Shown: positions 6,073 to 25,293 of the stretch, in pieces
Position numbering within the stretch: position 1 is the stretch's first letter
Layout of the letters: the number at the start of each line of letters is the position of its first letter
Origin: a virus
Length of the DNA: 48,673 bases
UHGV virus genome: UHGV-0181052
Reading direction: 5' to 3' (one strand)
Notes under the pieces: generated by a model
The model's input: only the letters and a program-made list of their open reading frames with translations
What the model was told of the DNA's origin: nothing
Database searches by the model: none
Made by a program: the position numbers and the translations under genes

Positions 6073-6080
6073 TTGATTCC

Positions 6081-6823: not shown

Positions 6824-6835
6824 GGAGCGTTATAG

Positions 6836-7318: not shown

Positions 7319-7326
7319 GGTAGAAG

Positions 7327-7530: not shown

Positions 7531-7532
7531 CC

Positions 7533-7805: not shown

Positions 7806-7809
7806 CAAG

Positions 7810-7832
7810 AAGGGGCCATCGGCCCCTTTTTT
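7810..7832. terminator. bidirectional rho-independent terminator between the early (+) unit and the late (-) unit
   Basis: GGGGCC-ATC-GGCCCC stem-loop followed by T6. The T-run overlaps the stop codon of the tail fiber gene. Confidence 0.8.
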
Positions 7833-9048
7833 ACTCCCCTTTCAGCTCCTTCAATTCCTGCCGAAGCTCCTGCACCGAAGCCACCAGGTCAGCGATGATC
7901 GCCACATAGTCCACGTTCATCACCCGGAACTTCTCGCCTTCGATCTCCTGCTCCTCCCCCTGATACGTGTAGACCTTGTCGACGGTATCAGCCTGCTGCG
8001 CGATAAAACCGCGCCTTACGCGGCTTTCTCCCTTCATCCGGTACTGACATACCCCTAAGCGTTCGATACGCTCACAGGCGCTTGCAGGCGCTTCTGTAAA
8101 GCCTTCCTTTAGCCTGACATCGGAGCCTTGTGTCATGACGTCGCCCTTCGGCGTTGAGATGGTACCGGCAGCGCGGAAGATCCATGCGTCCGTTCGGCCA
8201 TAACCGTCGAGATACAGCACCATCCTGTGCTCTGTCCCTACCTGCTCCTCAATGTAGAACTGAGAGTAAGCGCCATCGACGTCGCCGTAAGCGCCTCGCC
8301 CGCGGATCATTGAGCGAACCGGGTTCCCTGTCAGTTGCGCGCCACTCGCCGGATTGGATGGCGCTGTTGATGACGCCGTAACCCTCCCGTCCTGCACCCA
8401 AAAACTTGCCACCTGCGCCGTGAGCCTGTTCGCCTGATCCTGGATGAGGCGGGCGGTAAAGTCCGCGCTGCTGCTGTTGTAGTGAAAGTCGATGTATGGC
8501 GTGCTCATTGACAGCTCAATGGCCTGGGTCAGCACCTTACCCTTCGACGTGTTGTCGATGTTTCCACCAGCAGCCAGCGCCCCGGGTAGCGTCGTCTGCT
8601 TGTCCACGCCGATAACAAGGATGTCCTCATAGGTCGAGCTTGGTGAGACAGTCGCAGTGCTGGCCCGCTGCACCTTAAACGACGTCCCGCTGCCGACGGC
8701 GATGGTGCCACCCTGACCTTGCTTTTTCAGCAGCGCAAGATCTGAGTTCTTGCCCAGGTAGATCATACTGTTGTCGCTGCTGCAATTGATGTTCCCCACC
8801 CTGACGTCAAGCCCGGCGTTGAAGATCTGTAGGCCCGTGAAGGTGTTCGACTGCCCGCGCTGCGCTGCGGTATCAAGCGATCCGATCACCTTGTTCCATG
8901 AGCGCACGGTGGCGGTGGTTCCGTCCTGCTTGGTGATCTGCACGTCGCCGACGCCGAAGAAGATCTGATCCTGATTGGTGAGGTCTGTGTAGTACTTGCT
9001 GAATGCGTTGTGAATATCAGCCGCGAGTTGGTCGCTAATTGTTGCCAT
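7831..9048 (-). CDS. tail fiber / tailspike protein with C-terminal peptidase-S74 intramolecular chaperone domain
   Basis: The C-terminal 100 aa (...DVRLKEGFTEAPASACERIERLGVCQYRMKG...GFIAQQADTV...) match the self-cleaving chaperone of endosialidase-type fibers. Confidence 0.75.
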   Translation of the reverse strand: MATISDQLAADIHNAFSKYYTDLTNQDQIFFGVGDVQITKQDGTTATVRSWNKVIGSLDTAAQRGQSNTFTGLQIFNAGLDVRVGNINCSSDNSMIYLGKNSDLALLKKQGQGGTIAVGSGTSFKVQRASTATVSPSSTYEDILVIGVDKQTTLPGALAAGGNIDNTSKGKVLTQAIELSMSTPYIDFHYNSSSADFTARLIQDQANRLTAQVASFWVQDGRVTASSTAPSNPASGAQLTGNPVRSMIRGRGAYGDVDGAYSQFYIEEQVGTEHRMVLYLDGYGRTDAWIFRAAGTISTPKGDVMTQGSDVRLKEGFTEAPASACERIERLGVCQYRMKGESRVRRGFIAQQADTVDKVYTYQGEEQEIEGEKFRVMNVDYVAIIADLVASVQELRQELKELKGE

Positions 9049-9056
9049 TCAATATC

Positions 9057-9072
9057 GGCCCCCGTAGGGGCC
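9057..9072. repeat. GC hairpin GGCCCCCGTAGGGGCC between the J and tail fiber genes (copy 1)
   Basis: 6-bp stem with CGTA loop and no T-run. Identical to the copy at 35283-35298. Confidence 0.7.
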
Positions 9073-9079
9073 GCCTCCA

Positions 9080-12000
9080 TTAGCTGAATGAGTTGCTGTT
9101 CGTGCGGAACGCGGTGGCCGTGATGTTCTGGATCGAGCAGTTGTAATCGAACGATGCGTCGTTGCCGCGAGCCTTGATGAAGAAGGTCACATTGTTGTTA
9201 TCAGCGGCAAGGTCGGCAGCGAAGCGGAACTCCTGCGTGAAGTCGCCAGCCTGGAAGCCGGAGGCGTTCGCGAAGAAGCGGCGCGTGACTTCCTGCCCGC
9301 CGATGTTAAACGTGATGTCGACAGAATACGACTGCTGAACGTTACCGGCACCAGTGAGCTGATAAACAAGCGTGCAGGATAACACCACCGTCATACCATA
9401 GCCGCGGTTCTGATAAGCACCGTTGCGCTGTACTGTCTGGTTACGACGGAACGACATATCATCGTAGCGACGCGCCACGGCAATATCGCCAATGAACGAC
9501 TCAGCTTGCAGGGTGCCTTTGAACACGCCACTGTTAGCCTCGACACGACCGCGAACGATGACGTTGTTGAACTGCGAGCTGCCATCTTTAGCGATGCGCC
9601 AGCCCTGCGAGCCATCAACAAAGTTGTTCGACCTGATTTCGTTGCCGATCTTCGCGTTGGTGATCGAACCGTCGCGGATGAGCGCTTCCTGCATATACGC
9701 CACGCCGTTCTGCACTACGAACGGGAACGTCTTGTTGCTGCCGCCAGCGTACACTGCGAAGGTGTCAGCCTGAACCAGGAACTGAGAAGAGCCACTCGCG
9801 TCGATGCCCAGCTGAATCCCTGCGATGCGCGGGTTACCGCCGCCGGTGTCAGTCTGAACTTTGACGCCCCACTGCGCCGACAGCTTGCCGTTGATATCCG
9901 CAACCGCCGTTGAGGTCTGCTGTACGGTAGCGCTCATGCCATCCATTGACGCGTTGATCGTGTCGATCTGCTGCGCCGTTGCAGTCTCAAGATCCACCAC
10001 AGCCTTGTTCGTCTGCGTGATGGCCGCCTGATTGTCGCCAATCTGTGCGCGCAACTGCTGGAAGCCGTTTGCCATCGCCAGACCGTTAGCCGCAGTCGTC
10101 TCGTTCAGTCCGTCGATCGCTGACTCTGCATTGCCGACGCGAGAAGTCAGGCTGGTCAGAGCGTTGCTGTTCGCGGTGATCTTGCCTTCCGCATTGGTGA
10201 CGCGGGTAGTCAGGGAATTCAGTGCCGAAGCGCTGGCCTTCGTGTCCACCACGCCAGACAGGTCGGACAGGTCGCTATTCAGCTTGGTAATCGCCTGTCC
10301 CTGAGAGGTCAGCGTATTGCCCTGCTGGGTGACCGTCGATTGCAGGCTGGTGATCGCGTTGGCGTTCGCCGTGATCTTCCCGTTCGCGGTGCTGAGGTCT
10401 GCGGTCAGCTGAGTGATCGCCGTTCCCTGCGACGTGATTTTGCCTTCTGCCGTCGTGACGCGGGTGGTCAGGTTGCTGATGGCTGTCGCGTTCGCTGCGT
10501 TGTTGATCTCGTCGGTGACGTCGATAAAGAACACGTCATCGAAATAGATCTCGCCTGTAGCCAGGTTCCAGTTAATGGAGTAAGCAACATCCATATCTGT
10601 CGCCGGGACAAAGTCCTTAGTGAGCAGCGTCCAGTTGGTGCCGATATTCGCTTCCGAAAAGTTCAGCTCAGACAGCGGGCCAGCGCCGGTGGTTGCATTA
10701 CCCAGGCGGAACTTGTTGTTCCCATAGGTGTTGGGGCCGATCGCCATATCAGCTGTGCGCTTCACATATCCGCCGAACCGGTAGGTGCGCCCAGCCTTCG
10801 CCCCCAGCACATTCTGGCCGATCGCCGTGTTACCGCCTGACTTGCCACGCAGGATCATTGCACCAGACTTCGGAGCCTGAGCTGCGTAGACGTCAGCTCG
10901 TGAACTCCAGCCGCTCCAGCTGTCCGTTCCACGCTCGAAGCCGGTGTTCGTCAGCATGTTATCCGGGTTCGCCGCCAGCGCCACCGCGTCGTTCGTCAGA
11001 CTGGATTTCAGCTGCGTGAGCGCGTTCGACTGTGCGGTGATGTCCTGGCCCTGCTGGGTGACGGTAGTGGTCAGACTGCTGATTGCCGCGCTGTTGGCCT
11101 TGATCGTCAGCTCTTCGGTGATGTCGTACACCTTGAACGAGTCGATCCACACCTCAGCGTTTGACGGGTGGCAATACAGGCCGAACGCTGAACCGTCGAA
11201 GCCGCTTGCCGGGGTGAGGTCAGTTTCCCACGTCAGAGTTTGCCAGTCGGTTGTCAGCGTGTTGTTCTTGTCGGAATAAGAGCCTTCAACGCTGCCGTTG
11301 TAGTTCCAGCGACGCATGAGGAGGTTCATTCCGCCGCTTACGCCTTTCGCACGCACAACATAGCGATAACGGCGCTGACCGTTCTGCGGAACCGGCTTTT
11401 TGTTGTTCGCAAACAGCCCGGGCGATGTGGCGTTGACTTTAACCATACGGACGCCGTTCTTCCCGTCGCCATACGCGCCGAACGTCACCGTGCTGAAACT
11501 ATCCCGTTGCAAGCTGTATGCGGTGTCGCCTTGCAGGAAGTCATAGTTCTGCACGAGGTTTTCACCGGTGCGGCGCTGTGCTTCCAGCCCGTTGTTCAGG
11601 TTGGTGATGGCCGTACCCTGGCTCTCGATCTTGTCTTCTGCGGTGGTCACACGCGTTTGCAGTGCGGTGACTGCGCTGGCGTCAGCCTTCTGGCTCAGTG
11701 TGCCGTTGATGGTGCTCACGTCGCCGTTCAGCTTGGTGATCGCGTCTGCCTGCGATGTGATCTTGCCTTCGGCGCTGCTCACACGGCTGGTCAGGCTGTT
11801 GATCGCGCTGGCGTTAGCGTCTGCGGTGATCTGTGCTGCGTGCGCGTCGGTAACGTCTGTGATAACGAGATCGTCGATGAAGACACGATAGCCCGGGCCA
11901 CCGGATGTGCCACGACAGGAGATCCACAGACGACCGCGAGTCTTCTGCGCGCCACCGGCACCGATCTTGCCTGAGAACTTGACCCACTTACCGCGACCGC

Positions 12001-15000
12001 CACCAGCGGCCAGTGTGGCTTCGTTGATGTTCAGCGCGGTAGGCCATGCTGCCTGTCCTGCGGAGGTGCGAACCATTAAGCCCACCAGACAGCTCCAGCC
12101 TTCCGGGGGCGTCTCGGTTTCCGGCATCATTGCCCAGCACTCAAAGCGGTACACGGCGCTTTCTCGAATAGCCGTTTCATAGCCGATAGTCTTATCAGAG
12201 TTGCCGGTTTCACCGTTTGCACGGCGGCACATGAGCGACTTCTGACCACTGAATGCGAATTCCGTGGTCACCAGCCCGTTAGCTCCGCCGATCGCCTGCT
12301 GGTTATCATACGACTCAAATGAGCCATCTACCCACGGGTTGCTGTTGCTGTACTGAACCGTGAGTAAACGGTTAGTCAGCTGGGTGATCGAGCTGCCCTG
12401 CGACGTGATGTCGTTACCCTGCTGGGTCACTTTCGTGTTCAGCGAGGTGATCGCGTCAGCGTTCGCCTGGATCTTGGTGTCGTTGGTGATGTCGACAACG
12501 TAGACGTCGTCGAAATACATCGCGCCAGCGCTCAGCCATGTAGTCAGCTGGAACAGCGCGTTAGTGGTCTTCGTGGCCGTCCAGTCCATGAAGACGTGTT
12601 GCCATTCAGACGTAAACGGGCCGTAGTTCGTACCGATAAGAAGATTGCCTGATGCGTCAGCGATGCGGAATTTCGTGTTACCCGGATCGTTGATGACAGT
12701 CCCGGTGTCCTGCTTGGCAAACACGCCGAAGCGGTACCGGCGGCCCTGCGTGATTTCCACGGCCTGACTGATTCCAGCACTTCCGCCTGCCGCCATCTTG
12801 GCAATCTTGGTTCCAGAATGCGGCTGCGTTGCCGTGATGATGGTAGCAAGGCTGCTCCATCCGGTGAAGTTAACCGGGCCACGCTCAAACGATGAGTTAG
12901 CCAGCAGGTTGCCGGGGATCTTGCCCTGCGCGTCGATTGATGCGTCAGTGGCTGACAGGCTGTTGCTCAGCTGGGTGATCGACTGACCCTGTGAATCAAT
13001 CTTTCCTTCGGCAGTCGATACGCGGGTAGTGAGCGCATTCAGCGCCGAAGCGTCTGCCTTGCTGTTCACGATGCCGGTGAGCGTGCTCAGATCGCCGGTC
13101 AGCTTGGTGATGGCCTGACCCTGAGACGTGATCGACCCTTCCGCAGAAGTGACACGGGTGGTCAGCTGGGTGATCGCCGTGGCGTTGGCGTCAGCCTTGC
13201 TTTCTGCATTCGCCGCTGCGGTAATGTCGCGAACGCTCCAGTCAGTTGCATACCAGACTGTACCGAAGTCCGGGCCGCCCTGAGCGATTTGCAGGAATGG
13301 ACGGAAGTAACCCTTCGCACCCTGCGCCGCGTTTACTGTCCAGCGCCACGTAGTGCGCGTCCACTTCGCGCCGGTAGCCGCTGAGATCTGGCCGCCGTTA
13401 GCCTGTGGTGACCCGATGCTGCCAGAAACCACCGTCGACGTACCGATGTAGTGCTGGAATGGCGCGGAGCCGGTACCACATGCAGCCAGTACTGATAACT
13501 CAAACACCTGCCCTTCGCGGCACGGGATGTTATTCATTGCCGGAACATGATCGCGGTACTGGCATTTGATTGCCCACGGGTAAGGGCAGTCGGCCGGAAC
13601 GCCTTCGGACGCGGTTGAAACTACGGTAAGCCCCATCTGACCGTATGCCGGGTCTACCGTCGGGTTCGGGATGAGGTTGGCCGCCTGAGTCAGCGCGCCC
13701 TTGATCGATGAGTTGATCGAGGTGATAGCCTCAGCTTGAGAATCAATCTTCCCTTCCGCTGCGGTGACGCGGGTCGTCAGGTTCGTGATCGCCGTGGAGT
13801 TAGCAGCGATCTTCCCGTTCGCTGTCGACAGGTCACTGGTGAGCTGGGTAATGGCGTTGCCATGCGCAGTGATCTTCCCTTCCGCGGTGGTGACCCGGGT
13901 AGTCAGCGACTGCAACGCGCTCGCGTCAGCCTTGTTGTTCAGCGCGGTGTTGATGTCCTGCACTGAGTTGTTCAGCGTCAGGATTGCGGCGCTGTTCGAG
14001 TCAACCTTCCCGGCGGTCTGCTCAACCTGAGATGAGAGGATCTGCGAGGCGGATGCGGCCGCCAGCTGACCGGCACCACTGAACAGCTGATCAACGTTAT
14101 CGGACAGCTTGAGTCCGAAGTTGATATAGAACTGGCCGGTGATCTGTGCAACCACAAATTCCAGCGTGTTCCAGCCCTTTTTGAGCACCAGGTTGTAGGT
14201 AGCGGTGCTTGCGCCGAAGGTGGCCGCCTCTGCGCCGTTGATGTACAACCGGCCGGTATCGTCCACGATGCGGGAGCCGGGAGCGATGGCAATAGTCTTG
14301 TCAGCCGCGACATACACCAGAGACTTCGCATACGCGATTTTGTAGTCGCCGTATGTCAGGAAGTCCAGCTTTGCAGCGTCGGCCATCTCGGACACGGCCA
14401 GAGGAGGAACGCCAGACAGGTCGGACAGTTTCGGGATGTACCCGCTACCGTTAACCTTGATGTCGAAGATCTTGGTCAGCCAGTACTTCGCTTTACCGTT
14501 CTGCGCGGTGTTCTGCAAATCGGTGATGGCCTGACCCTGCGAAGAGATGGTGTTCCCCTGCTGGGTGACAGTGGTCGCCAGCTGCTGCAATGCGCTCGCT
14601 TCGGCCTTGGTCGCCATCTGACCCTGCAAGGTGCTCACGTCGCCTTTGAGCTGGGTGATCGCCTGGCTGTTAGTGCTGATGGTGCCTTCCGCCGCAGTGA
14701 CGCGTGTAGTCAGTGCCTGCAACGCGCTTGCGCTGGCATTGTCAGCCGGTGCTTCGCTCCACTCGGTAGGCATGGTGCCGTACTCGAATTTGGGCGAGCT
14801 GATGTAAACCTCTTTGTCCTTAGACCCTTTCAGCAGTCGGCCAAAGATTACGCGCTGGGTGCCTGTCTGGCCGCTCTTACGGGTGTACTTAACCCAGTAA
14901 CGCGCCCAGTCTTCCGTAAGGTCGATTGTCATCGAACCATCGCCACCATTAGACCAGCTGCCAGTTTTCCCTTGGCTGCTTAAAGCCGTAAGCGTGGCGT

Positions 15001-18000
15001 TCGGGTTGTACAGGTAGACGAAAATTTGCTTACTGTCGGCGTTGTTCGCTTTCGCGTAGAAGCTGACGACCACTTCGGTGCCGTCGATCGGAGCCGCAAG
15101 CTCATATTCAAATTGGTCGTAGGAGCCAGCTGAGGCCGCTGCAATCGCGATGCGACGGATAGCATTGCCTTTGTACGTCTGACCCTGCACAACGCCGCTG
15201 ACGCCTGCCAGCGTGCCAGAGTTAGGGATCAGGTTGGTGCCGCCGACGCGCATGTTATTCAGGTCACTGCGCAGGTTGGTGATCAGGCTGCTGTTTGCCG
15301 TCACTCGACCATCCAGCGCGGTCACGTCTGTTTTGAGCTGGCTGATGGCCGCGGCATTAGCGCCGATCTTGCCGTTCGCGTCAGTAAGGTCGCTTTGAAG
15401 CTGGGTGAGCGCCTGCGCCTGAGACTGGTTTTCGCTGGTCAGCGTGTCGAGACGCTGGGTCACGGCGGCCTTGTTCGCGTTGTAGTCAGTGCGCAGGGTG
15501 TTGACATCGCTGGCGATCGCCTGTTCTGCGGTGACGCGGGTCTGGCGCTCGTTGAAGATGATGCCTGTCACCAGCTTGGACGGGTCGGTTCCCTCATAGT
15601 TCCCGCGGAGCTGTACGGCCAGCGTGTTACGTGCTGCGGCTTCGGCTGAGTCCGCCGCGGTCATGGCGGTGCGAAGATCCTGAATCTGCGCCTGAGACGC
15701 GCCCGGGGTCGGACGTCCGACGGCCATCCAGTCGATCGCGTAGTAGTTATTGGCGTCCTGATTGGTTGAGAAGTCCAGACGCAGGCGGCGCACGGTGCCG
15801 GATGTCGCCCACAGCAGATCAGGCAGCGACAGGACGGTAATGCCGGTGGTCGGGTCAAAGTCAGGTGCCGGGATGGTCAGGGAGCGGGCATTGTTCCAGC
15901 CTGTCTCATCCACGCCAATCCAATACAGCTTACCAGCCCATGCCGGGTTACCTACCTTCTTCATGCGCAGGCGCATGTACTTATAGCTGCGCGCGTCGAT
16001 TGCCAGCGGGTTCGGTGAGCGCATGGTGGCCGCTGCGCCAGCAGGGTACACCCAACCATCCTGGTCGACGGGGAGCAGGTTGGTGTTGGCATCGTCAGAA
16101 GCCCAGCCTTCCGGCCCATTGTCGAAGTACCAGATCGCGAGGCTGTCGAACTGTTCGCCGGTACCAGCGGCAATGGATGCCATCTGCTGCGCCAGGCTGT
16201 CGAATCCGTCCTGCATCGTGGTGTTAGTGGTGCTGATCTGCGCTTCAACTTCGTTCTTCGCGGTCAGCAGGTTGGCCGCTGCGTCAGCTGCTACTTGTGC
16301 GTCATCCGTCTCGGCTTTCGCGATAGCGTCGGCCACGTCCTGAGCCGCCTTGTTGGCGTTCGCGATGTCGCCAGCCTTACGATCGAGGATCTCCTGAGCG
16401 ATTGCGCTGGCGTTAGCCGCCCCCGCGTTAGCGGTGTTGGTGATGTCCTGCGCGTTCTTCTGGATCTCGGCCAGCTGGTTGTTCAGCTGCTGCTGCTGCT
16501 GCTGGTTGGTCGCCACGGCGTCATCTGCGGTGACCTGTGCAGCCTGAGCGGCATCTTTCGCGGCCTGTGCGCTGTCGCCAACTTCCTTGATCCCGCTGGT
16601 CAGCTCGCCGTAGGTGTCGGAGCCTTTGATCGCGTCGTCGATGTTCTGGTAATAGTCGTCCATGTTGTCGGACGTCATCGCCATGACCGGGGCGCTCCAC
16701 TCGCCAGCGTCGCTATATGACGACACAAAGCGGGCGCGTACCTGCACGCGTTCGGCGAAGCTGAGGCCTGCCTGAGTGAACGTTCCGGTTGGGTAGGTCA
16801 CGACGCTGAGATCGATCCATTCGCCAACCGGCGCGCCTGCGTCATTGATACGCTGGAATTGTAGCTCGGTTGACTTCATGTCAACGAGGTCGTCTGTGCC
16901 GGTGACCCAGCGCCAGGTGATGCCGTTCACGATGCCGACGCCGTTCAGGCCAGCTACTGCCGGGATGCTGCCGCGCTTGCCGTCAACGAACACCTGATTC
17001 GACTCGACCCACTGAGACGACCCGCCGTCACGGGACACGGAACGAACGCGGAACTGATAGGTGCCGGTCAGAACGTTGGTCAGATCAACGGACGTGCTCG
17101 ACTGGCTGGCGAGGTTAGTCCAGCCCTGTGACCACTGGCCGTTAGACTGAGAGGTTCGACGCACCTGAATGTCGTAGCTGACAGCCTGATCGACGGTGAA
17201 CCAAGAACAGTTGACGTTGGCGGAGCGAAGACCCTGGTTAACGATGCTGTAGCCTTCGGCCACCACGTTAGTCGGTGCCGGTACCTGACCGGTCGGGATC
17301 AGCGAGGTCGGACGGTCTTCAATTCTCGCGCCGGTATCAACCTGCAAATACTTCGAGTGGCTGTATTGCAGACCGGTGACGGTGAAATTGTTGTCCTGCT
17401 CGTTGTAGGTGATCTTGGTGATGCGGATTAGTTCAGGGGCCAGCTCCTGAGTATCCAGCAGGAACACTTCGCCGCTCTGAATATCCAGGTCAGTGCCGTC
17501 GACGGTGAAGGACATCCGGTCAGCCGCGATTGCGTTGATCACGCGGTTGTAGGTGCCATCGGTTCCACCCTGACGAACGATTACGCGATCGCCGATTGCC
17601 ACGTGATCGGAGATCATGCGGTCTGAGGTGATGGTGGTGCCGGATACGCCAGCCACACGGCCGCCGAACTGTCCGCCCTGCACGTAGCGGTTGGCGATGC
17701 CGACGACGTCGCCGATCAGGTACTTGATGCCGTTCAGGCCGACGCGGTAGCTGATCTGCATATCGTTGATGTTCGACAGCAGCGCCCACAGGCCGCGTCG
17801 TTGCGCCTCGTATTCGTCGGTGCAGCCGATACCGGAAACTTCCAGCGGCTCGACGCCATAGCGTTCCACGAGGTCTTTGAACTGCGCGACGGTGGTCTGC
17901 GTCTTATAGTGCGCCTTCGGGTCGTCAAAGGTGACCATCGCGATCCCGCGACGGTTAGCCATGCTGCCGTAGGAGTATTCGAAGGTGCCGTTCACTACGT

Positions 18001-19147
18001 CGTCGTTCGTCACAACGTGACGGACTTCTGCCGGTGCGTCCTGCGCGAACTGCAACTGCATGTTGCTGTAGCTGACCATGCCGTTAAAGATCGACGCCAG
18101 GTCACGGATGACGCTCCACGCATGCGCACGCTTCTGGATATACACGTTGCAGGTGTAGCGGCGGTTCTGCGTGCCGTCGGCGTTCGTCACCAGCTCATCA
18201 CAGCGCTGTGCGATGCTGTACATCGTCCACTTGTTCAGGAATGAGGCCGGGATACGGCGGCCAATGCCGAAGCGCTTATGCAGAACAATGTCGTAGACGA
18301 TCCATGCCGGGTTATCAGTCCACGCCTGTTTAAATGTCCCGTTCCACGACCCGCTATAGGTGTGGTTCACCGGGTCATAGTTGGACGGAACCAGAACCAG
18401 CCGGCCGCCCATCTTGATGCTGATTTTCGGGATGTTCTGGAATGATTTGGCGTCGAAGCTGACGAACAGCAGGGACGTCCACGGGTAACGAACGCGGGCG
18501 TCAACGATCTCGGTGATAGCCACGATCCCGGAGTTGAGAACGGTGGTATCAGAGGTGCTATCGTCAGTGAGCCGGGTCACGCGGATTTGCCAGCCGGTGC
18601 TGCTCTTAGGCAGGTCGATGCGGTGATCGCGCTCATAGTTGTCTTTCTGCTTACCGTCCACAGCCCCATCGAAGGCCACGGTGTAGACGCTGTCGCCGAC
18701 TTTGCGGTATTCGATCCGATAATCAATGCGGCCGCCGACGCGATCCCCGTCCTTCTGCTGGATGACCAGACGGAAGTTCATACGGATACGGACGGCGTCG
18801 ATCTCGGTATTGGTGACGTTACGCACCCATGCAGCCGACTTTTTCAGCTCCACGTTAATGCGTGTCTCACTCTCCACCGCCGGGAAGCCGTTGATCGGCT
18901 CCTGCTGCGGGGTGCCGTTTCGATATTCCAGTGTTACGCCGGGAATGTTAACTGAGCCGTCTTCGTTCTGAACGGGAGTCCCGTCAAGATAAACGCGCTT
19001 CGGCAGGTCTTCCGCGCTAATCGGCACGGTTTCACCCTCTGACAACGCAAGTAGCATCCTTACCGTTGCGTTGCTGATCAGGGAGTCTGGATCTTCAACG
19101 GGAGTATGCACGTTGCTACTCCCGCCCTTGTATCCTTTGATTTCCAT
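9080..19147 (-). CDS. giant central tail fiber / host-specificity protein (lambda J-like N- and C-terminal parts separated by about 2000 aa of repeated modules)
   Basis: 3355-aa uninterrupted ORF. The N-terminus MEIKGYKGGSSNVHTPVEDPDSLISNATVRMLLALSEGE is J-like, and the C-terminal roughly 350 aa resemble the J receptor-binding region. The middle holds at least 8 repeats of a TTRVTxAEGKI coiled segment plus a roughly 170-aa beta-sandwich, carbohydrate-binding-module-like domain. Confidence 0.9.
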   Translation of the reverse strand: MEIKGYKGGSSNVHTPVEDPDSLISNATVRMLLALSEGETVPISAEDLPKRVYLDGTPVQNEDGSVNIPGVTLEYRNGTPQQEPINGFPAVESETRINVELKKSAAWVRNVTNTEIDAVRIRMNFRLVIQQKDGDRVGGRIDYRIEYRKVGDSVYTVAFDGAVDGKQKDNYERDHRIDLPKSSTGWQIRVTRLTDDSTSDTTVLNSGIVAITEIVDARVRYPWTSLLFVSFDAKSFQNIPKISIKMGGRLVLVPSNYDPVNHTYSGSWNGTFKQAWTDNPAWIVYDIVLHKRFGIGRRIPASFLNKWTMYSIAQRCDELVTNADGTQNRRYTCNVYIQKRAHAWSVIRDLASIFNGMVSYSNMQLQFAQDAPAEVRHVVTNDDVVNGTFEYSYGSMANRRGIAMVTFDDPKAHYKTQTTVAQFKDLVERYGVEPLEVSGIGCTDEYEAQRRGLWALLSNINDMQISYRVGLNGIKYLIGDVVGIANRYVQGGQFGGRVAGVSGTTITSDRMISDHVAIGDRVIVRQGGTDGTYNRVINAIAADRMSFTVDGTDLDIQSGEVFLLDTQELAPELIRITKITYNEQDNNFTVTGLQYSHSKYLQVDTGARIEDRPTSLIPTGQVPAPTNVVAEGYSIVNQGLRSANVNCSWFTVDQAVSYDIQVRRTSQSNGQWSQGWTNLASQSSTSVDLTNVLTGTYQFRVRSVSRDGGSSQWVESNQVFVDGKRGSIPAVAGLNGVGIVNGITWRWVTGTDDLVDMKSTELQFQRINDAGAPVGEWIDLSVVTYPTGTFTQAGLSFAERVQVRARFVSSYSDAGEWSAPVMAMTSDNMDDYYQNIDDAIKGSDTYGELTSGIKEVGDSAQAAKDAAQAAQVTADDAVATNQQQQQQLNNQLAEIQKNAQDITNTANAGAANASAIAQEILDRKAGDIANANKAAQDVADAIAKAETDDAQVAADAAANLLTAKNEVEAQISTTNTTMQDGFDSLAQQMASIAAGTGEQFDSLAIWYFDNGPEGWASDDANTNLLPVDQDGWVYPAGAAATMRSPNPLAIDARSYKYMRLRMKKVGNPAWAGKLYWIGVDETGWNNARSLTIPAPDFDPTTGITVLSLPDLLWATSGTVRRLRLDFSTNQDANNYYAIDWMAVGRPTPGASQAQIQDLRTAMTAADSAEAAARNTLAVQLRGNYEGTDPSKLVTGIIFNERQTRVTAEQAIASDVNTLRTDYNANKAAVTQRLDTLTSENQSQAQALTQLQSDLTDANGKIGANAAAISQLKTDVTALDGRVTANSSLITNLRSDLNNMRVGGTNLIPNSGTLAGVSGVVQGQTYKGNAIRRIAIAAASAGSYDQFEYELAAPIDGTEVVVSFYAKANNADSKQIFVYLYNPNATLTALSSQGKTGSWSNGGDGSMTIDLTEDWARYWVKYTRKSGQTGTQRVIFGRLLKGSKDKEVYISSPKFEYGTMPTEWSEAPADNASASALQALTTRVTAAEGTISTNSQAITQLKGDVSTLQGQMATKAEASALQQLATTVTQQGNTISSQGQAITDLQNTAQNGKAKYWLTKIFDIKVNGSGYIPKLSDLSGVPPLAVSEMADAAKLDFLTYGDYKIAYAKSLVYVAADKTIAIAPGSRIVDDTGRLYINGAEAATFGASTATYNLVLKKGWNTLEFVVAQITGQFYINFGLKLSDNVDQLFSGAGQLAAASASQILSSQVEQTAGKVDSNSAAILTLNNSVQDINTALNNKADASALQSLTTRVTTAEGKITAHGNAITQLTSDLSTANGKIAANSTAITNLTTRVTAAEGKIDSQAEAITSINSSIKGALTQAANLIPNPTVDPAYGQMGLTVVSTASEGVPADCPYPWAIKCQYRDHVPAMNNIPCREGQVFELSVLAACGTGSAPFQHYIGTSTVVSGSIGSPQANGGQISAATGAKWTRTTWRWTVNAAQGAKGYFRPFLQIAQGGPDFGTVWYATDWSVRDITAAANAESKADANATAITQLTTRVTSAEGSITSQGQAITKLTGDLSTLTGIVNSKADASALNALTTRVSTAEGKIDSQGQSITQLSNSLSATDASIDAQGKIPGNLLANSSFERGPVNFTGWSSLATIITATQPHSGTKIAKMAAGGSAGISQAVEITQGRRYRFGVFAKQDTGTVINDPGNTKFRIADASGNLLIGTNYGPFTSEWQHVFMDWTATKTTNALFQLTTWLSAGAMYFDDVYVVDITNDTKIQANADAITSLNTKVTQQGNDITSQGSSITQLTNRLLTVQYSNSNPWVDGSFESYDNQQAIGGANGLVTTEFAFSGQKSLMCRRANGETGNSDKTIGYETAIRESAVYRFECWAMMPETETPPEGWSCLVGLMVRTSAGQAAWPTALNINEATLAAGGGRGKWVKFSGKIGAGGAQKTRGRLWISCRGTSGGPGYRVFIDDLVITDVTDAHAAQITADANASAINSLTSRVSSAEGKITSQADAITKLNGDVSTINGTLSQKADASAVTALQTRVTTAEDKIESQGTAITNLNNGLEAQRRTGENLVQNYDFLQGDTAYSLQRDSFSTVTFGAYGDGKNGVRMVKVNATSPGLFANNKKPVPQNGQRRYRYVVRAKGVSGGMNLLMRRWNYNGSVEGSYSDKNNTLTTDWQTLTWETDLTPASGFDGSAFGLYCHPSNAEVWIDSFKVYDITEELTIKANSAAISSLTTTVTQQGQDITAQSNALTQLKSSLTNDAVALAANPDNMLTNTGFERGTDSWSGWSSRADVYAAQAPKSGAMILRGKSGGNTAIGQNVLGAKAGRTYRFGGYVKRTADMAIGPNTYGNNKFRLGNATTGAGPLSELNFSEANIGTNWTLLTKDFVPATDMDVAYSINWNLATGEIYFDDVFFIDVTDEINNAANATAISNLTTRVTTAEGKITSQGTAITQLTADLSTANGKITANANAITSLQSTVTQQGNTLTSQGQAITKLNSDLSDLSGVVDTKASASALNSLTTRVTNAEGKITANSNALTSLTSRVGNAESAIDGLNETTAANGLAMANGFQQLRAQIGDNQAAITQTNKAVVDLETATAQQIDTINASMDGMSATVQQTSTAVADINGKLSAQWGVKVQTDTGGGNPRIAGIQLGIDASGSSQFLVQADTFAVYAGGSNKTFPFVVQNGVAYMQEALIRDGSITNAKIGNEIRSNNFVDGSQGWRIAKDGSSQFNNVIVRGRVEANSGVFKGTLQAESFIGDIAVARRYDDMSFRRNQTVQRNGAYQNRGYGMTVVLSCTLVYQLTGAGNVQQSYSVDITFNIGGQEVTRRFFANASGFQAGDFTQEFRFAADLAADNNNVTFFIKARGNDASFDYNCSIQNITATAFRTNSNSFS
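16486..16503 (-). repeat. (CTG)6 microsatellite inside the J-like gene, encoding Q6 on the coding strand
   Basis: ctgctgctgctgctgctg. Because it is a triplet repeat, slippage would preserve the reading frame. Confidence 0.8.
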
Positions 19148-19746
19148 TAAGAACGTACCTCGTTAGCGATGATTCCGGCGCTGATGATAGCACCCCCGAT
19201 CTCACGCTCGCCATACAAAACGCCCACGATGTTACCTTGTGCTGTCGTGTTGACCGGTTGGCCGAAGGCGTATGACGGCGCGTTGGCGTCATCCTCCCTG
19301 ATCCTCATGCCTGTCGACTGAGGGGAGAGCATCTGCATGACCCCGCCAGCAGCCGTGGAGATACCAGCAGCCACGAGGTAAGGGGAGACAGCCTGCCCGC
19401 CAGGGATGAACGAAGCCACGACGCCCGCGACAATCATTGCAGCGCCCAGGATGGTCTGAAACAGGCCGCCCTTCTTGTTGCCGATGATGATCGGTGCGAT
19501 GCGGAATTCTTCGCCGTCAGGGATTGGCTGCGACATCTCGTTGAAGCCGATGTTCCGCTTACCGATGAACGGGGCGAAGGTCAGGCCGCGAGACTGGCTG
19601 TCTCGCATGTACTGGTCGAAGCCGGGGAGGATGGCGGAAAGGGCGCTGATTGCTTCGGCGCAGGAGTCGACCGCGAGGTGATGGACACGCCCGAAGCGCG
19701 CGCCCATTTCCCCATACAGTCGGATTGTGCTTAGCTGGTTTCCCAT
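19147..19746 (-). CDS. tail assembly protein (lambda gpI-like)
   Basis: Position and size match. The start/stop overlap (TAATG) with the J gene. Confidence 0.8.
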   Translation of the reverse strand: MGNQLSTIRLYGEMGARFGRVHHLAVDSCAEAISALSAILPGFDQYMRDSQSRGLTFAPFIGKRNIGFNEMSQPIPDGEEFRIAPIIIGNKKGGLFQTILGAAMIVAGVVASFIPGGQAVSPYLVAAGISTAAGGVMQMLSPQSTGMRIREDDANAPSYAFGQPVNTTAQGNIVGVLYGEREIGGAIISAGIIANEVRS

Positions 19747-20480
19747 TGTGTGATCTCCGGTAATAACTCATGCCGGAGGATACCAGTAATGCGCGGCTCA
19801 AGGTAAGTGCCGTACATCCTGTCGATGGTCGACTTACGATTCATGAGGTGGTGCATGATCATCCCGTCGCCGGTGTAGATCCCGCAGTGATTGCTCACGC
19901 TGGCGGCGATGCGGAATACCACCATATCGCCCGGCTCAGCCTCAGCCTTCTTGATAAATCCCGCTGCTGCAAAATTCTCGTCCGTGAAAAGCTCCTCTCC
20001 TTTCTCCCACCACGGGTACGGCTTGCGGAAGTCTGGCAACTGGATGCCGCGCGAACGGTGCCATGCCATCACCAGGCCGTAGCAGTCGGTAGCGCCCAGC
20101 ACGAAGTCACGACCCAGCAGCCCCTTCGGCTCCTCAAAGAATACCGCCATCTCATCCTTGTCCGGGGCGTAGATGAACCACGGCAAGCACGTCTCCTGCA
20201 TAAGCTGGCGATCGAGGATTGACGGATACGCCAGACCGTCGGCACCGGGATGCGAATGGATGACGGCCACGATGTTACCGGCGTCCTCAGCCTCAGCGAA
20301 GTCCTGCGGGGCAATGCGGAAGCTGTTCATTTTGTCGGCCGCTGAGTTGATGACCGGCCAGTATTCGAGGCCTCCACCTGAATCCACCAGAAGCCCGCAG
20401 CCCTCTTGCGGCGAACACTCAGTAAGATGTTGTTTAATATACGTTAATTGCTGTTCCGGGATGTCTTTTACGTCAATCAT
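19731..20480 (-). CDS. tail assembly protein (lambda gpK-like, MPN/JAB plus NlpC/P60 domains)
   Basis: Start moved to the ATG at 20480 with a GGAGG RBS. HSHP...D in the N-terminal half (JAB-like) and a C...H pattern in the C-terminal half. Confidence 0.8.
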   Translation of the reverse strand: MIDVKDIPEQQLTYIKQHLTECSPQEGCGLLVDSGGGLEYWPVINSAADKMNSFRIAPQDFAEAEDAGNIVAVIHSHPGADGLAYPSILDRQLMQETCLPWFIYAPDKDEMAVFFEEPKGLLGRDFVLGATDCYGLVMAWHRSRGIQLPDFRKPYPWWEKGEELFTDENFAAAGFIKKAEAEPGDMVVFRIAASVSNHCGIYTGDGMIMHHLMNRKSTIDRMYGTYLEPRITGILRHELLPEITQWETS

Positions 20481-20496
20481 TTTTGCCTCCACTTGG

Positions 20497-20556
20497 CACC
20501 ACCTGAAATTTTAAGCTATTGATTTAAAAGGCTGAATTTCAGGTGTTAGGTGGTAT
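20497..20556. repeat. inverted repeat carrying the CCACCTGAAATT box, upstream of gpK
   Basis: The 11-bp arms CACCTGAAATT (20500-20510) and AATTTCAGGTG (20535-20545) are separated by 24 nt. The reverse complement of 20535-20556 matches 37646-37667 at 21 of 22 positions. Confidence 0.6.
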
Positions 20557-20781
20557 GGGTTTATATATTTATTACCATAAATACATATAAGACATACCCA
20601 AGACCATATAAATAAAACTCCCTTGTGAGGGTTTTTATTATATATGGCTATGGGATGTATTCTTATCTTCGTGAATCGAAAACTACGGGCCTGAACGGCA
20701 CGCTGTCGCGTTTAACGCCGTCAGGCCATACGTTCGGACGTCTCAGCCACAAAAACGCCTCAGAACGCGTTACAGCGCGTT

Positions 20782-22053
20782 TTAGTCAATCAGCCTTACC
20801 GAGATGAATCCGCCATAGTCCAGAACGGCCGCTTTCGGGTCACTCACCAGCTGGCCGAAGCGCAGGCGACAGTCCTGAATGCATCCCCCGCATTCGTCCT
20901 TGGTGATGTCGTCCACCTCATTCCCGTGCTTGTCGTACCACTTCTTGGCCGTGCCGCGGTTCCAGCTACACCCGTTTTCCTCCCCTGCATCCAGCCCTTT
21001 ACCGTAAAGCCCGCGCGCCTGCCATTGACAGAACGTCGTGATCTGCCGCGTTGGCACCTGGAAGTTCTGGAGGTCGAGCGGCGACGACAGCGCGAACCGA
21101 ACATACTCTTCGCTCTCATAGTCTGGCCGGTCGATGTAGTAGAGCTGCGTCCACTGCTGCATTGAGTCGGCGTACTGGTTGCCGTCGGTGAAGTTGCGCG
21201 GATCGAGGAACTTCGCATAGGTCTGGATGAGCTTAACCTTTGCCCCGACCATCTGCTGATAGGTGCGCAGGTAGGCGCTGACGACCCCCGACTGGTTGCC
21301 GACGGACAGGGTAGGCGTACCCTGCTGCTCGCTGCTGAACTCGATCCCCTCCGCCATAAACGGCCAGTAGCCATACTCGACGTTATCGAACCAGATTGAC
21401 TTCGGGGCCAGCTTGGATGCGTCGACCTCGTGCGGGTTCTTGTTCAGGATGCTGATTCGCTTGATCTCGATCTCGCCGACCGCCTGCTGCCATAGGTCAA
21501 GGCGAATGCCGATGATCTGGCTATCGACCCAATCGGAGCCGCCAGCGCTCAACTTCGACATATCGAACGAGAATTTCAGCCAGCCATCACCAAGATCCTC
21601 AGTGACTGCCGGTAACAGCCCGGTTTTTAGGTAGCCCGGCGAGAAGTCATGCGCCGCCGTCTTATAGTAGATCTGATACAGGTTATCCGACCCTTCTGGC
21701 GGGGTAATCCAGCGCCCAACCACCTCAATCACCTGATACTTCGAGCCAGTCAGGCCGCCGGTGAACGAAGGCAGCAGCAGGTTCGCGTCAGCAGCCGATG
21801 ATTTGAAGTTGATGGTGTTCCGGTCTTCGTTGGCCGTCACTTTCCCGCGGCCGCCATTGCCGTAGCACTTGAACAGCTGATCGCGGGTCAGCGTGCTGTT
21901 CGCGCTGTCGAGGATCTCCTTGCTCGTGTGCGGGAGCTGGCAATAGTGGCCCCGGATGATCCCAGCGCCGAACTCGGTGCCGTCGATCTCCATGAGAATG
22001 ATCTTGCCCGACGGGTCTAGTTTTGTGGCTTCGTCGAAAATGGTGTTGCTCAT
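20782..22053 (-). CDS. minor tail protein (lambda gpL-like), expanded to 424 aa
   Basis: Start MSNTIFDEATKLDPSGKIILMEIDG at 22053 overlaps the gpM stop (ATGA). The C-terminus DITKDECGGCIQDCRLRF...GGFISV matches the Cys cluster of lambda L. Confidence 0.8.
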   Translation of the reverse strand: MSNTIFDEATKLDPSGKIILMEIDGTEFGAGIIRGHYCQLPHTSKEILDSANSTLTRDQLFKCYGNGGRGKVTANEDRNTINFKSSAADANLLLPSFTGGLTGSKYQVIEVVGRWITPPEGSDNLYQIYYKTAAHDFSPGYLKTGLLPAVTEDLGDGWLKFSFDMSKLSAGGSDWVDSQIIGIRLDLWQQAVGEIEIKRISILNKNPHEVDASKLAPKSIWFDNVEYGYWPFMAEGIEFSSEQQGTPTLSVGNQSGVVSAYLRTYQQMVGAKVKLIQTYAKFLDPRNFTDGNQYADSMQQWTQLYYIDRPDYESEEYVRFALSSPLDLQNFQVPTRQITTFCQWQARGLYGKGLDAGEENGCSWNRGTAKKWYDKHGNEVDDITKDECGGCIQDCRLRFGQLVSDPKAAVLDYGGFISVRLID

Positions 22054-22412
22054 CCTTTCACCCCTGTGTAGATGCCCACGGCCTGCTCGGCTGTGAAGGT
22101 GATGTTCATGGTTGCCCGGCCCAGTGCGACATATTTGATCGTTCCGCTCTTCACGGTGTAAAGGCCCAGCTCGCCATGCGGCGGAACCATCTGGAACGGG
22201 TTGGTGATGTGCGCTTTCAGGAAGTTGAGGATCTGGTTTCCGGTCTTCGCGTTGCCAGTCCACGAACAGGGCACTTCCATGATGAACGGGTTAATGCCTT
22301 CCAAAACGTTTTGCTGCGAACCGTCGCCGAAGCTGTTCGACCGGCTGCGGTCTTTCACTGATACCTGTTGACCTGCCGCCAGCGGCCAGATCCACGCGTC
22401 TAATGTAGCCAT
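22050..22412 (-). CDS. minor tail protein (lambda gpM-like)
   Basis: 120 aa. AGGAGG RBS. It lies directly downstream of the tape measure gene. Confidence 0.8.
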   Translation of the reverse strand: MATLDAWIWPLAAGQQVSVKDRSRSNSFGDGSQQNVLEGINPFIMEVPCSWTGNAKTGNQILNFLKAHITNPFQMVPPHGELGLYTVKSGTIKYVALGRATMNITFTAEQAVGIYTGVKG

Positions 22413-22437
22413 AAAAAAAGCCTCCTGTGTGGGAGGC
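22413..22437 (-). terminator. terminator/attenuator-like hairpin between tape measure and gpM
   Basis: Minus strand: GCCTCC-CACACA-GGAGGC followed by T7 and then the ATG. The 3' arm doubles as the SD. Confidence 0.55.
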
Positions 22438-22446
22438 TGTAGGTTA

Positions 22447-25293
22447 TCACGCGTGGCCGTTCATAAGCATCCAGATCTGTCCGCCCGGGGAGCTTGCCCG
22501 GGCAATGCCGTCCTGAATGGCTGCGGCCATTGCATCACCGTAGGCCCGGCCCAGCTTGCCAGACTCTGACACGTTGGCCGTCGCCTGCCCGTTCTGGTCG
22601 ACATTCACTTCCATCGACCCGATGGAGACGCCACCACCGGCACCACCCTGAGCACGAACGCCCAGCCTTCCGCTGGAATCCTTCGCCAGTGGCATGATGG
22701 CTTCCGGCCCTGCTTCGGCGAACACCCCACCCTTCGCAAACGGCTTCGGCTTGTCATACGTGAACAGCTGCGGCGTGGTGTAGACGCGGTTGCTGTACGC
22801 AGACAACGACGGGCTATCGTATACGCCACCCTTCGCGTTGAATCCGATGCTGGACATATCGAAGCCCATCGCGCCGCCGATCCCCTGAATGGCTTTGAAC
22901 ATGAGCCATTTGTTGATCATCTGCACCATCATCCCAAGGATGGACTTGGTGAAGTCGGCGAACGACGCCTTACCGGTCATCACGAAGGTGTTGATCGAGT
23001 CCAGACCGGCATCCATTGCGCCCGTGACGGCCTTCTGCACGTTGGCCGACACGTCGGTGGCGTCCTTACCCCACGCCTCAATCGCTGATCGTGCGCCGCC
23101 TGCCCAGTCCTGCGTTTTCTCATCGGTAGCCTGCCGCAGTGCTTCGCGCTGGCGTGCGTCCTCGTCGATCTGCTCCTGAGTAGCGCCTTTGTCCCGGAGG
23201 GCCGCCGCGCGCTGCATGTTCTCCAGCAGTCGGGCCGCCTCATCGGCTGACAGTCCCCACGAGGCGTTAATGGCCGCCACCTGAACAGAAAGGTCATTGC
23301 CGCTGCGGGTCAGCTCGTCGGTGATCTGCGCCTGACGTTCAAGCTGCTTGACCTGATCGCCCAGCAGACCAACGGTCTTCGCCTTCGCGAGAACTTCCTC
23401 TTTGCTCGCCAGAAGCGACTTTTCATCCTTCGTGAGCGCCCGGCCTTTTGCGTCAGCCCGGATGCCCTCAAGGATGGAGATCTTCGCGACTAACAGCTGG
23501 TAGTTCTTCATCTGCTCGGAGGCGTTGACGTCGAAGGCGTTGCGGTCTTTCAGCGTCTTGATCTGCGCCCGCAATGCCAGCTCCTGCGCCTGATACTGCT
23601 CAAGGATGCGATCACCCTGTGCAACGGTGACGGCCTTCTCCTTGTTGTGCTTCGCCTGCTCACTCGCCAGCTTACTGACGGCTTCACGGCTCTTCTCATC
23701 GGTAGCGCCGCTGCCGGTAGCGCCGTTGGCATTGCGCGCCCGCGCCTCAGAGTCTGCCTGGCTCTCAAATGCCCGCTTGCTGACCTCTGCGAACTCCTTC
23801 GCGATCTGCTTGCCCTTCTCGATGGACTCACGGCCATTTTTCTCGACGGTTTCGACGTCGATCCCCATCGCCCGGAGAACACCACGGCCATCAACGCCCG
23901 GCACCTTGTCCAGCAGGTCAGCGACGCCCAGCGTGAATTTGCTGTCCATCTGCGCTAGGTAGTTCAGCAGGTCATCGATCGACAGCTTGACCATCATGAA
24001 GATGTCGACGGCGCGGTTACCCCACGAGCGCAGCACGATCCCCATATCGTTAAAGGCATCCGATGCGCCGGTTTTGAGCGCCTTCCACGCCTGTCCGACG
24101 TTATCGGTCTTCTCGATCACGTCATCGGCCCGCTTGTTCATGGCCGTCGTGTAGATGTCCAGCGCTTCGGCGGCCGCAGCCTGCTCACCTTTCTCCTTCT
24201 GCGTCTGGATTAGGTGCTTCATCTGCGCTTCTGTCATGAAGCCGTATTGCTCATTGAGCGCGGCGATGGACTTGATCGGGTTCTTCACCAGATTGTCGAA
24301 GTCTTTCATGACGTCGCCAGCGTCCAGCCCTGCATCTGACAGTTTCGACGTGGAGATCGCCACCTTCTCCATCATATCGGCTGTCATCGTCCCCTTGTTG
24401 TTCAGCTCGATCAGCCGGTCGGTGATGCTGCTAATGCTGTCGCCGGTTGACTGCTGGATTCTCATGGCGGCCTGGTTCAGCTGGTCGGCTGACTTAAAGC
24501 CCGCGCCACCCATGAGCGTCACCGATGCGGCGAGGCGGTCGGCCTGATCTGCGCTGGTGTAGGCTGCATAGCCCATTGCGGCGATGGCCGCGGTTGCGCC
24601 AGCCAGCCCGAGGAAGGAAGGGGAGATGAATTGTTTTAGCGCCTGAAAGGTGTTCCCCAGCCCGCCGAAGGAGTCCTTAATCTGGCCGCCCTGCTGGATC
24701 ATGATCAGGAATGGGTTCTGACCACCCGCCAGCTGGGTGACGATATCGGTCATCTGCGCCGGTAGCATGCCCATCGCCGCGCGGTATTGCCCGGTTGTGA
24801 TGGTCAAGCCCTGCTGTAACGTCTTCTGTTTCTCAGACGTCACATTCAGGCCGCGCATTGCTGCGTCGTTGCGGTCGATGATCCCGGCACGGTTGGCGAG
24901 GATGGCGTTGTATTCCTCGGCCTCCTTCGCCCCCAGCAGGCCATTAGCCTGAGCCTTCGCCAGTGCCTCCTGCTGCTGCGCCAGGTCACGAAGCTGAACG
25001 CGCGTTGGTCGGATGCGGTCGAGGAGGTTTTGAAGCTCCTGATTCTGCCGGTACAGGCCCACAGCAGCATCCCCGGCCGCCTCCTGCGTCTGCTTCGCCT
25101 CGTTGTTGAAGTTGTCGACCGCTGCGGCTGCTGCGTCGGCTGACGGCTTCACCTGGTCGAACTTGTCGCCCAGCCCGTCCGCTGCCCTGCCTGCGTCCTG
25201 CGCCGCGTCAACAAGGTCTGCGAGGGATTTGGCCCCCGCGTTGACCCCGCTGGCGTCGACGTCGACGATCAAGCGTTCTGTGTTATCACTCAT
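22447..25293 (-). CDS. tail tape measure protein
   Basis: 948 aa, Ala/Gln-rich and coiled-coil rich, positioned between the G/GT chaperones and gpM. Confidence 0.9.
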   Translation of the reverse strand: MSDNTERLIVDVDASGVNAGAKSLADLVDAAQDAGRAADGLGDKFDQVKPSADAAAAAVDNFNNEAKQTQEAAGDAAVGLYRQNQELQNLLDRIRPTRVQLRDLAQQQEALAKAQANGLLGAKEAEEYNAILANRAGIIDRNDAAMRGLNVTSEKQKTLQQGLTITTGQYRAAMGMLPAQMTDIVTQLAGGQNPFLIMIQQGGQIKDSFGGLGNTFQALKQFISPSFLGLAGATAAIAAMGYAAYTSADQADRLAASVTLMGGAGFKSADQLNQAAMRIQQSTGDSISSITDRLIELNNKGTMTADMMEKVAISTSKLSDAGLDAGDVMKDFDNLVKNPIKSIAALNEQYGFMTEAQMKHLIQTQKEKGEQAAAAEALDIYTTAMNKRADDVIEKTDNVGQAWKALKTGASDAFNDMGIVLRSWGNRAVDIFMMVKLSIDDLLNYLAQMDSKFTLGVADLLDKVPGVDGRGVLRAMGIDVETVEKNGRESIEKGKQIAKEFAEVSKRAFESQADSEARARNANGATGSGATDEKSREAVSKLASEQAKHNKEKAVTVAQGDRILEQYQAQELALRAQIKTLKDRNAFDVNASEQMKNYQLLVAKISILEGIRADAKGRALTKDEKSLLASKEEVLAKAKTVGLLGDQVKQLERQAQITDELTRSGNDLSVQVAAINASWGLSADEAARLLENMQRAAALRDKGATQEQIDEDARQREALRQATDEKTQDWAGGARSAIEAWGKDATDVSANVQKAVTGAMDAGLDSINTFVMTGKASFADFTKSILGMMVQMINKWLMFKAIQGIGGAMGFDMSSIGFNAKGGVYDSPSLSAYSNRVYTTPQLFTYDKPKPFAKGGVFAEAGPEAIMPLAKDSSGRLGVRAQGGAGGGVSIGSMEVNVDQNGQATANVSESGKLGRAYGDAMAAAIQDGIARASSPGGQIWMLMNGHA

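Follow-up and report, generated by a model that had tools for sequence, protein, structure and literature searches.

Positions 9080 to 19147 on the minus strand of the virus genome UHGV-0181052, analysed here as a window of 48,673 nucleotides (nt), encode the central tail fibre, of the lambda gpJ/TipJ type, of a Klebsiella siphophage belonging to the unclassified vB_Kp3 cluster. Between its J-type ends the protein (J) carries eight globular modules, all of carbohydrate-binding-type fold or family membership, and the best explanation overall is that J is probably a non-enzymatic, multivalent sugar-binding fibre in which a trimeric shaft carries the modules. The open reading frame (ORF) listing and its translation give a single intact frame of 3355 codons that starts with ATG. 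At 10,068 bases it fills 20.7% of the window, and its product is 2.96 times the length of lambda J (1132 residues), in agreement with an earlier note made from this DNA, which had estimated about 10 kb, 21% of the genome and three times lambda J. The size of the window and its gene order match the complete genomes of relatives (48-49 kb). The J frame is unbroken in 10 of the 11 related phages examined, so that J is a real gene and not a chance ORF. The sole exception is the record of vB_KleS-HSE3 (MT075871), where J appears at 3094-12885 divided among four 'tail fiber protein' ORFs that overlap or adjoin (gp047, gp048, gp049 and gp052), probably through frameshift sequencing errors rather than a genuine split.

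The two ends of J place it among the lambda-type tail-tip proteins. Among PDB sequences, residues 2-844 match the 'J-like tail tip protein gp24' (23gd_D) with an expectation value (E) of 2.9e-224 and residues 9-708 match lambda J itself (8iyk_J, E 8.8e-91), while the same hub also matches the F2 pyocin fibre (25vf) and 9l9p_S; the Pfam domain FNIII-A_GpJ (PF24801) is found at 91-217 with 120.7 bits. At the distal end, Phage_Tail_Tip (PF09327) scores 132.6 bits at 3074-3208, and the stretch ~3001-3205 can be aligned to the C-terminal fibre portions of the F2 pyocin fibre (996-1197; 25vf_A, E 3.9e-24), 23gd, 9l9p and lambda J (840-1001). The 150 residues that follow, domain T, have no match in PDB sequences or Pfam and are presumed to be the terminal receptor-binding domain. 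The earlier note had expected a J core at the N-terminus and a J-type C-terminal end, and had proposed a comparison with lambda-like central fibres; the hub (1-844) and the Phage_Tail_Tip domain with T answer to that description, and both ends are homologous to lambda J. Directly upstream of J the gene order tape measure-M-L-K-I-J is present, and these genes together with the J-type ends identify the product as the central tail fibre of a lambda-type tail tip. Consistent with this, J scores 3616 bits against the 3686-position profile of the PHROGs v4 'tail protein' family phrog_2589. The NCBIfam model lambda_TipJ (NF049904) gave 359 bits, far under its cut-off of 1950; since this model recognises lambda J specifically, the failure excludes a lambda J equivalog and not membership of the wider family.

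The insert between the hub and the distal end comprises ~2150 residues (845-3000), where the earlier note had counted about 2000, and consists of nine helical segments (c0-c8) that alternate with eight globular modules (A-H) of 150-175 residues each. The helical segments total 966 residues, or 29% of the protein. Because a whole-protein self-BLAST returned the identity match alone, the modules were delimited by self-comparison of masked 200-residue windows and by iterated profiles on 229 homologues, which were searched back against J. Alignment of the whole segment 2070-2887 with 48 homologues ran to 3824 columns and was unusable, because the modules are shuffled among the homologues, and alignments were made at the level of domains instead. 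The eight modules delimited in this way agree with the earlier count of at least eight coil-plus-beta-sandwich units.

All eight modules are lectin- or CBM-like (CBM, carbohydrate-binding module), as had been proposed; the single kind of module implied by that proposal gave way to three or four families, namely five CBM_4_9 paralogues (D-H), one remote relative of these (B), one megatron-type CBM (A) and one PA14-like module (C). Modules E and H pass the gathering score of Pfam CBM_4_9 (PF02018; 33.4 and 27.8 bits against 25.9), and H aligns with the solved CBM 2zex (E 4e-5); the BppA-type family CBM_4_9_1 reached just E 0.056 on H. With modules searched singly, Pfam returned no match for A, B, C, D, F or G. 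D, F and G are nonetheless homologous to E and H by profile comparison: profile searches connect the two groups at E 1e-20 to 1e-40, and hhalign probabilities are mostly 96-100%, with D-G as one weak pair at 8%. Module B is probably a remote relative of the same family, as hhalign aligns it with E, G and H over ~130 columns at 72-87% probability, its profile matches 3see, a 'sugar binding protein' (E 9.5e-4), and two of eight B-family members match CBM_4_9 at E ~5e-4.

The remaining two modules were assigned with the help of structural models. Module A was modelled with confidence (predicted local distance difference test, pLDDT, 91.3) and its profile matches the megatron of roseophage R4C by sequence (E 5.5e-10, residues 489-617), so that homology in both sequence and fold connects it with megatron residues 482-629, which the R4C authors designated a carbohydrate-binding domain (PMC10276861). 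For module C, a homologue search with the module on its own yielded just three fragments, and an exhaustive search of representatives was more productive; the model, built from just eight sequences, has a moderate pLDDT of 75.8 and a predicted PA14 beta-barrel fold. It matches phage proteins annotated as PA14/GLEYA in BFVD and also resembles the sugar-binding, non-catalytic N-terminal domain of GH2 enzymes. Pfam found no PA14 or GLEYA in module C at E up to 10, the sole match being Cadherin-like at 0.13. The family alignment contains an invariant DD dipeptide (D82 D83), which may correspond to the Ca2+/sugar-binding Asp-cis-Asp site of PA14 lectins. Sugar binding by the modules is putative, being suggested by fold and family membership. 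The five paralogues D-H are 15-37% identical to one another and their DNA similarity comes down to one 47-nt stretch between E and H, a divergence that leads us to reject recent tandem duplication. Construction by repeated domain duplication, as proposed earlier, is at best an old and partial story: D-H are one family, while A, B and C are separate.

The helical segments have a hydrophobic period of 3.4-3.6 residues, a Pfam SlyX match was counted as evidence of coiled coil, and a heptad-based, gp26-like repeat is present in most of them. The motif LTTRVTxAEGKI, already picked out in the earlier note, occurs 11 times in the protein, and at the DNA level there are 12 copies of an 84-nt unit that are 60-76% identical. 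The coil repeat LTTRVTTAEGKI... is nearly the motif LNVRVTTAEGEI... of the P22-family tail needle gp26 (4lin, 2poh, 3c9i), a trimeric coiled coil; gp26 is a plug or needle of 230-300 residues in podophages, whereas in J the motif is a repeated linker between lectin modules. NCBIfam matches of J to SMC families (50-59 bits against cut-offs of 300-567) and to S-layer families were discarded as coiled-coil artefacts. Several relatives have coil-rich structural proteins that GenBank records name 'chromosome partition protein Smc' or 'methyl-accepting chemotaxis protein I', and these names are artefacts of the same sort. The tip is trimeric in solved J-type relatives, and since each PDB entry of a solved J or pyocin fibre contains three chains (8iyk, 15 chains in five entries; 25vf, nine chains in three entries), we infer that the insert of J forms a trimeric coiled-coil shaft. 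Such a shaft would measure up to ~143 nm if fully extended and would display 8 x 3 = 24 lectin-like modules per virion.

Table 1. Parts of the J protein and genes around it, with positions in the window.
Feature	Residues of J	Positions	Strand	Basis
Whole J gene, central tail fibre (tip attachment protein)		9080..19147	-	ORF call; phrog_2589, 3616 bits; phrog_31 'central tail fiber J', 906 bits
J/TipJ hub and FNIII domains (tail-tip core)	1-844	16616..19147	-	23gd_D, 25vf, 9l9p_S and 8iyk matches; Pfam FNIII-A_GpJ
c0, Ala/Gln-rich helical segment	845-1003	16139..16615	-	sequence; hydrophobic period 3.6, P+G fraction 0.05
Module A, CBM-type beta-sandwich	1004-1157	15677..16138	-	homologous to R4C megatron carbohydrate-binding domain
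Module B, probable remote CBM_4_9-like beta-sandwich	1301-1468	14744..15247	-	hhalign; 3see; family members
Module C, PA14/GLEYA-like lectin fold	1550-1696	14060..14500	-	
Module D, CBM_4_9-family paralogue	1822-1983	13199..13684	-	E-family profile, 1.5e-20; hhalign D-E 99.6%
Module E, CBM_4_9 domain	2079-2226	12470..12913	-	Pfam PF02018
Module F, CBM_4_9-family paralogue	2266-2441	11825..12352	-	hhalign E-F and F-H 100%; hmmsearch 1e-36 to 1e-40
Module G, CBM_4_9-family paralogue	2527-2682	11102..11569	-	hhalign E-G 100%, G-H 99.9%
Module H, CBM_4_9 domain	2729-2880	10508..10963	-	Pfam PF02018; PDB 2zex
c8, longest distal coiled coil, directly upstream of beta-prism seed	2881-3073	9929..10507	-	4lin, E 3e-6; F2 pyocin fibre 908-1067, E 0.042
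Span with 12 DNA copies of the 84-nt coil repeat, within c2-c8		10154..14737	-	repeat family D1, 60-76% identity
Phage_Tail_Tip (DUF1983) central straight fibre domain	3074-3205	9533..9928	-	Pfam PF09327
Domain T, variable C-terminal domain	3206-3355	9083..9532	-	replaced or strongly diverged in relatives
Upstream lambda-type tail-tip genes		19147..25293	-	Pfam and NCBIfam matches
Gene I (Lambda_tail_I)		19147-19746	-	
Gene K, JAB+NlpC_P60		19731-20492	-	
Gene L (Phage_tail_L)		20782-22263	-	
Gene M (Phage_min_tail)		22050-22412	-	
Tape measure (TMP_2/Tape_meas_lam_C)		22447-25293	-	
Second fibre, 405 residues, C-terminal intramolecular chaperone domain		7831..9048	-	Pfam Peptidase_S74 at 309-356; phrog_1980 tail fiber
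Exonuclease VIII		5029-6072	+	gene size and synteny with HBM00
Erf-like annealing protein		6128-6823	+	gene size and synteny with HBM00
SSB		6836-7318	+	gene size and synteny with HBM00

The J gene is matched by 40 GenBank phage records, and 23 Klebsiella phages carry it over at least 80% of its length at 81-96% DNA identity; orthologues in the vB_Kp3 cluster include those of HBM00, vB_KPJD2, vB_Kp3, EKq1, HJK1 and phiKp_14. The suggestion that such a protein is unusual does not survive this result, as close relatives commonly carry it and a PHROGs family exists for it. Module order was compared in eleven relatives. The order A to H followed by T is the same in HBM00 and vB_Kp3 (J of 3355 and 3358 residues); EKq1 and K49PH164C2 (3381 and 3347) keep the A-H order with an H-like CBM in place of B; HJK1 (3391) has A to H and no match to T; phiKp_14, Wooten, Haden and Carter (3049-3300) have a different sequence where G-H would be; NewHawk (2644) has five modules and JVSB2 (2328) four. 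Module content among relatives therefore ranges from 4 to 8 and the length of J from 2328 to 3391 residues, and several of them carry swaps at position 2, at positions 7-8 and in the terminal domain. In vB_Kp3, Wooten, Haden and Carter, domain T is 35% identical, and a match to it is absent from EKq1, HJK1 and phiKp_14.

In comparisons of J with nine relatives, DNA homology stops at residues 1261-1290 (c1), 1477-1479 (c2), 1772 (c3), 2453-2511 (c6) and 2927-3014 (c8), with one end at 2867, within the C-terminal end of module H and 13 residues before c8, and further ends at 3199-3223, the boundary between the Tip domain and T. The events are non-independent and megablast ends are approximate; with that caveat, the concentration of breakpoints in coils is striking for segments that make up 29% of the protein. 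These comparisons show that related phages and prophages trade modules and the terminal domain as cassettes, joined within the coil linkers. The earlier note had proposed that similarity of the coils promotes recombination and variation in module number. The variation from four to eight modules and the breakpoints in coils uphold that proposal, whereas homologous recombination between coil repeats within the gene is doubtful as the main driver: the repeats are 60-76% identical and the longest exact repeat within the gene is 20 nt, so that exchange between different phages or prophages, at conserved coil sequence, fits better than slippage inside the gene. Tip proteins of Klebsiella prophages, listed at NCBI as 'carbohydrate binding domain-containing protein' or 'phage tail tip fiber protein', abound in the same modules, which are also present in Stenotrophomonas prophages and Xanthomonas phage Xop411. 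Module C was found in J-type proteins of 4233 (P0240) and 4797 (P0234) residues. These two proteins, from public assemblies, contain FNIII-A_GpJ, CBM_4_9, ILEI and Phage_Tail_Tip domains, and the P0234 gene, on a contig of 52,223 bp, would occupy ~28% of it. ILEI (PF15711) is an alternative module, seen at ~2560-2640 in the J of Haden and in many Klebsiella prophage tip proteins, and it adds another lectin-type cassette to the pool.

In the working model that we favour, the 24 lectin-like domains would bind sugars of the capsule or of lipopolysaccharide (LPS) weakly and multivalently, without degrading them. Such binding would capture the phage on the thick surface layer of Klebsiella and lead the distal tip towards a terminal receptor, whose binding by the last domain would in turn cause the tip to open, as it does in lambda and F-pyocins. 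Several points weigh against this model. A CBM-like fold does not prove sugar binding; D-H were assigned by sequence alone, the model of C has a pLDDT of 76, and B depends on hhalign probabilities of 72-87%. Transmission electron microscopy (TEM) of the relative PMBT64 showed no appendage on its 150-nm tail (PMC13435897). An appendage-free image fits poorly with a rigid extension of ~140 nm, though a coiled coil 2 nm wide can go unseen in negative stain or be folded back. The plaques of PMBT64 also show a faint halo, and its host range is confined to K3 strains (PMC13435897); the halo and the K3 restriction together hint at a capsule-specific, possibly enzymatic, activity of the virion.

The modules might instead be structural decoration that stabilises, spaces or protects the shaft without binding sugars, recognition being left to T and the adjacent 405-residue fibre. 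We hold this to be unlikely, as three or four lectin-type families would have been recruited independently onto one shaft, the module content is reshuffled between phages from different hosts, which is hard to explain for inert spacers, and equivalent CBMs on the tail tips of lactococcal and streptococcal phages have been shown to bind the host (PMC7291167). Decoration does find some support in the narrow host range of PMBT64 despite its many modules, in the variability of T and the 405-residue fibre, which also differ among relatives, and in the nature of the evidence for the modules themselves, where fold and family membership are shown and binding is putative.

A second proposal, of comparably low probability, adds to the sugar-binding fibre rather than excluding it, and holds that the coils are duplicates of the pyocin segment that converts from coil to beta-prism, so that J would be a fold-switching, shortening fibre. 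After binding, the shaft would collapse stepwise, drawing the tail tip across the capsule as far as the outer membrane, with the lectin modules acting as anchors. The proposal draws on a 2026 preprint in which binding turns the coil upstream of an F-type pyocin fibre's tip domain into a beta-prism and so opens the tip, and in which the same switch is predicted for 21 of 24 siphophage central fibres (PMC12874032). Like the F2 pyocin fibre, to which it is homologous at both ends, J has a coil (c8) directly upstream of the beta-prism seed in Phage_Tail_Tip, and the internal coils are 37-52% identical to c8. The strand pattern SxSxxMxxLxS was enriched over shuffled sequences in c1, c2, c4, c7 and c8 (five of the nine coils), in a loose test without a negative control, and any heptad coil rich in Ala, Ser and Thr would score in it; the match of c8 to the pyocin coil is also weak (E 0.042) and the gp26 needle matches better. 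In its fullest form, in which the whole shaft would be a chain of fold-switch units and the ~140-nm fibre would shorten several-fold as an ATP-independent winch dragging the non-contractile tail through the capsule, the proposal seems slightly less likely again.

Searches of Pfam, NCBIfam and PHROGs found no catalytic family in J and no catalytic domain in the 405-residue fibre, as the earlier note had expected in ruling out an enzymatic depolymerase. The stretches of the relatives' J proteins that were unrecognised turned out to be coils, Phage_Tail_Tip and, in Haden, an ILEI domain, with nothing catalytic among them, and no pectate-lyase-like beta-helix match was found in J, the 405-residue fibre or the variable regions of relatives. 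A depolymerase hidden in a module or linker, whose unrecognised polysaccharide-degrading activity would explain the faint halo around PMBT64 plaques and to which the resemblance of module C to a GH2 sugar-binding domain might point, is therefore very improbable, given that the same searches cover J, the relatives' variable regions and the second fibre, that what module C resembles in GH2 enzymes is their non-catalytic N-terminal domain, and that every module is too small for a beta-helix tailspike.

The reading of J as a sugar-binding fibre can be set beside systems already known. Lambda gpJ/TipJ and its relatives (8iyk, 23gd, 9l9p and 25vf) share the hub with its FNIII domains, the Phage_Tail_Tip domain and the place after M-L-K-I; the solved proteins of this type have 1130-1200 residues with ~60 between the matched parts, against ~2150 here, and the last 150 residues of J have no match in them. 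The orthologues in the vB_Kp3 cluster are the same gene. The 'evolved' Dit and Tal proteins of Gram-positive siphophages carry non-enzymatic, BppA-type CBMs grafted onto tail-tip proteins and exchanged like building blocks, as is likewise the case here, and host binding has been shown for these auxiliary CBMs (PMC7291167). Dit and Tal have one or two CBMs in loops of Dit or of the Tal N-terminal domain, whereas J has eight modules along a coiled-coil extension of a J-type protein in a Gram-negative phage. In the megatron of roseophage R4C and RcGTA (8gtc) the domain that resembles module A, to which this comparison is confined, protrudes from a compact baseplate protein, and in J it protrudes from a fibre. 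A literature search on these phages found no paper that analyses this J protein. J is a poorly studied but known and common protein, and it represents no new kind of sequence.

Around J, the genes agree with a lambda-type tail tip (Table 1). The L ORF has 493 residues when read from its first GTG, against 423 as annotated in relatives, and its Phage_tail_L match is limited to residues 286-491, which leaves an N-terminal extension of at least 200 residues unexplained. A gap of ~290 nt at 20493-20781 separates K and L, and relatives annotate a hypothetical ORF of 126-132 nt thereabouts. The second fibre finds no PDB sequence match, its N-terminal 300 residues included, and its gene varies in length among relatives from 1218 to 1287 nt. 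Next to the fibre genes, at 5029-7318 on the other (+) strand, lie three recombination genes identified by size and by synteny with the annotated HBM00 genome, for exonuclease VIII, an Erf-like annealing protein and SSB. The presence of these neighbours could favour exchange between diverged fibre cassettes.

The value of these results lies in drawing attention to an unstudied but common protein. Its architecture offers a test bed for the proposed switch from a coiled coil into a beta-prism in central fibres. The exchange of cassettes at coil linkers, at position 2, positions 7-8 and the terminal domain, amounts to a natural plug-and-play scaffold that could guide the engineering of host range for phage therapy, and for the phages themselves it is a plausible way of changing host range. 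Depolymerase tailspikes are the usual explanation of how Klebsiella phages cross the capsule. The vB_Kp3 cluster shows no recognisable depolymerase, and its long, lectin-studded J suggests a non-enzymatic, avidity-based route through the capsule.

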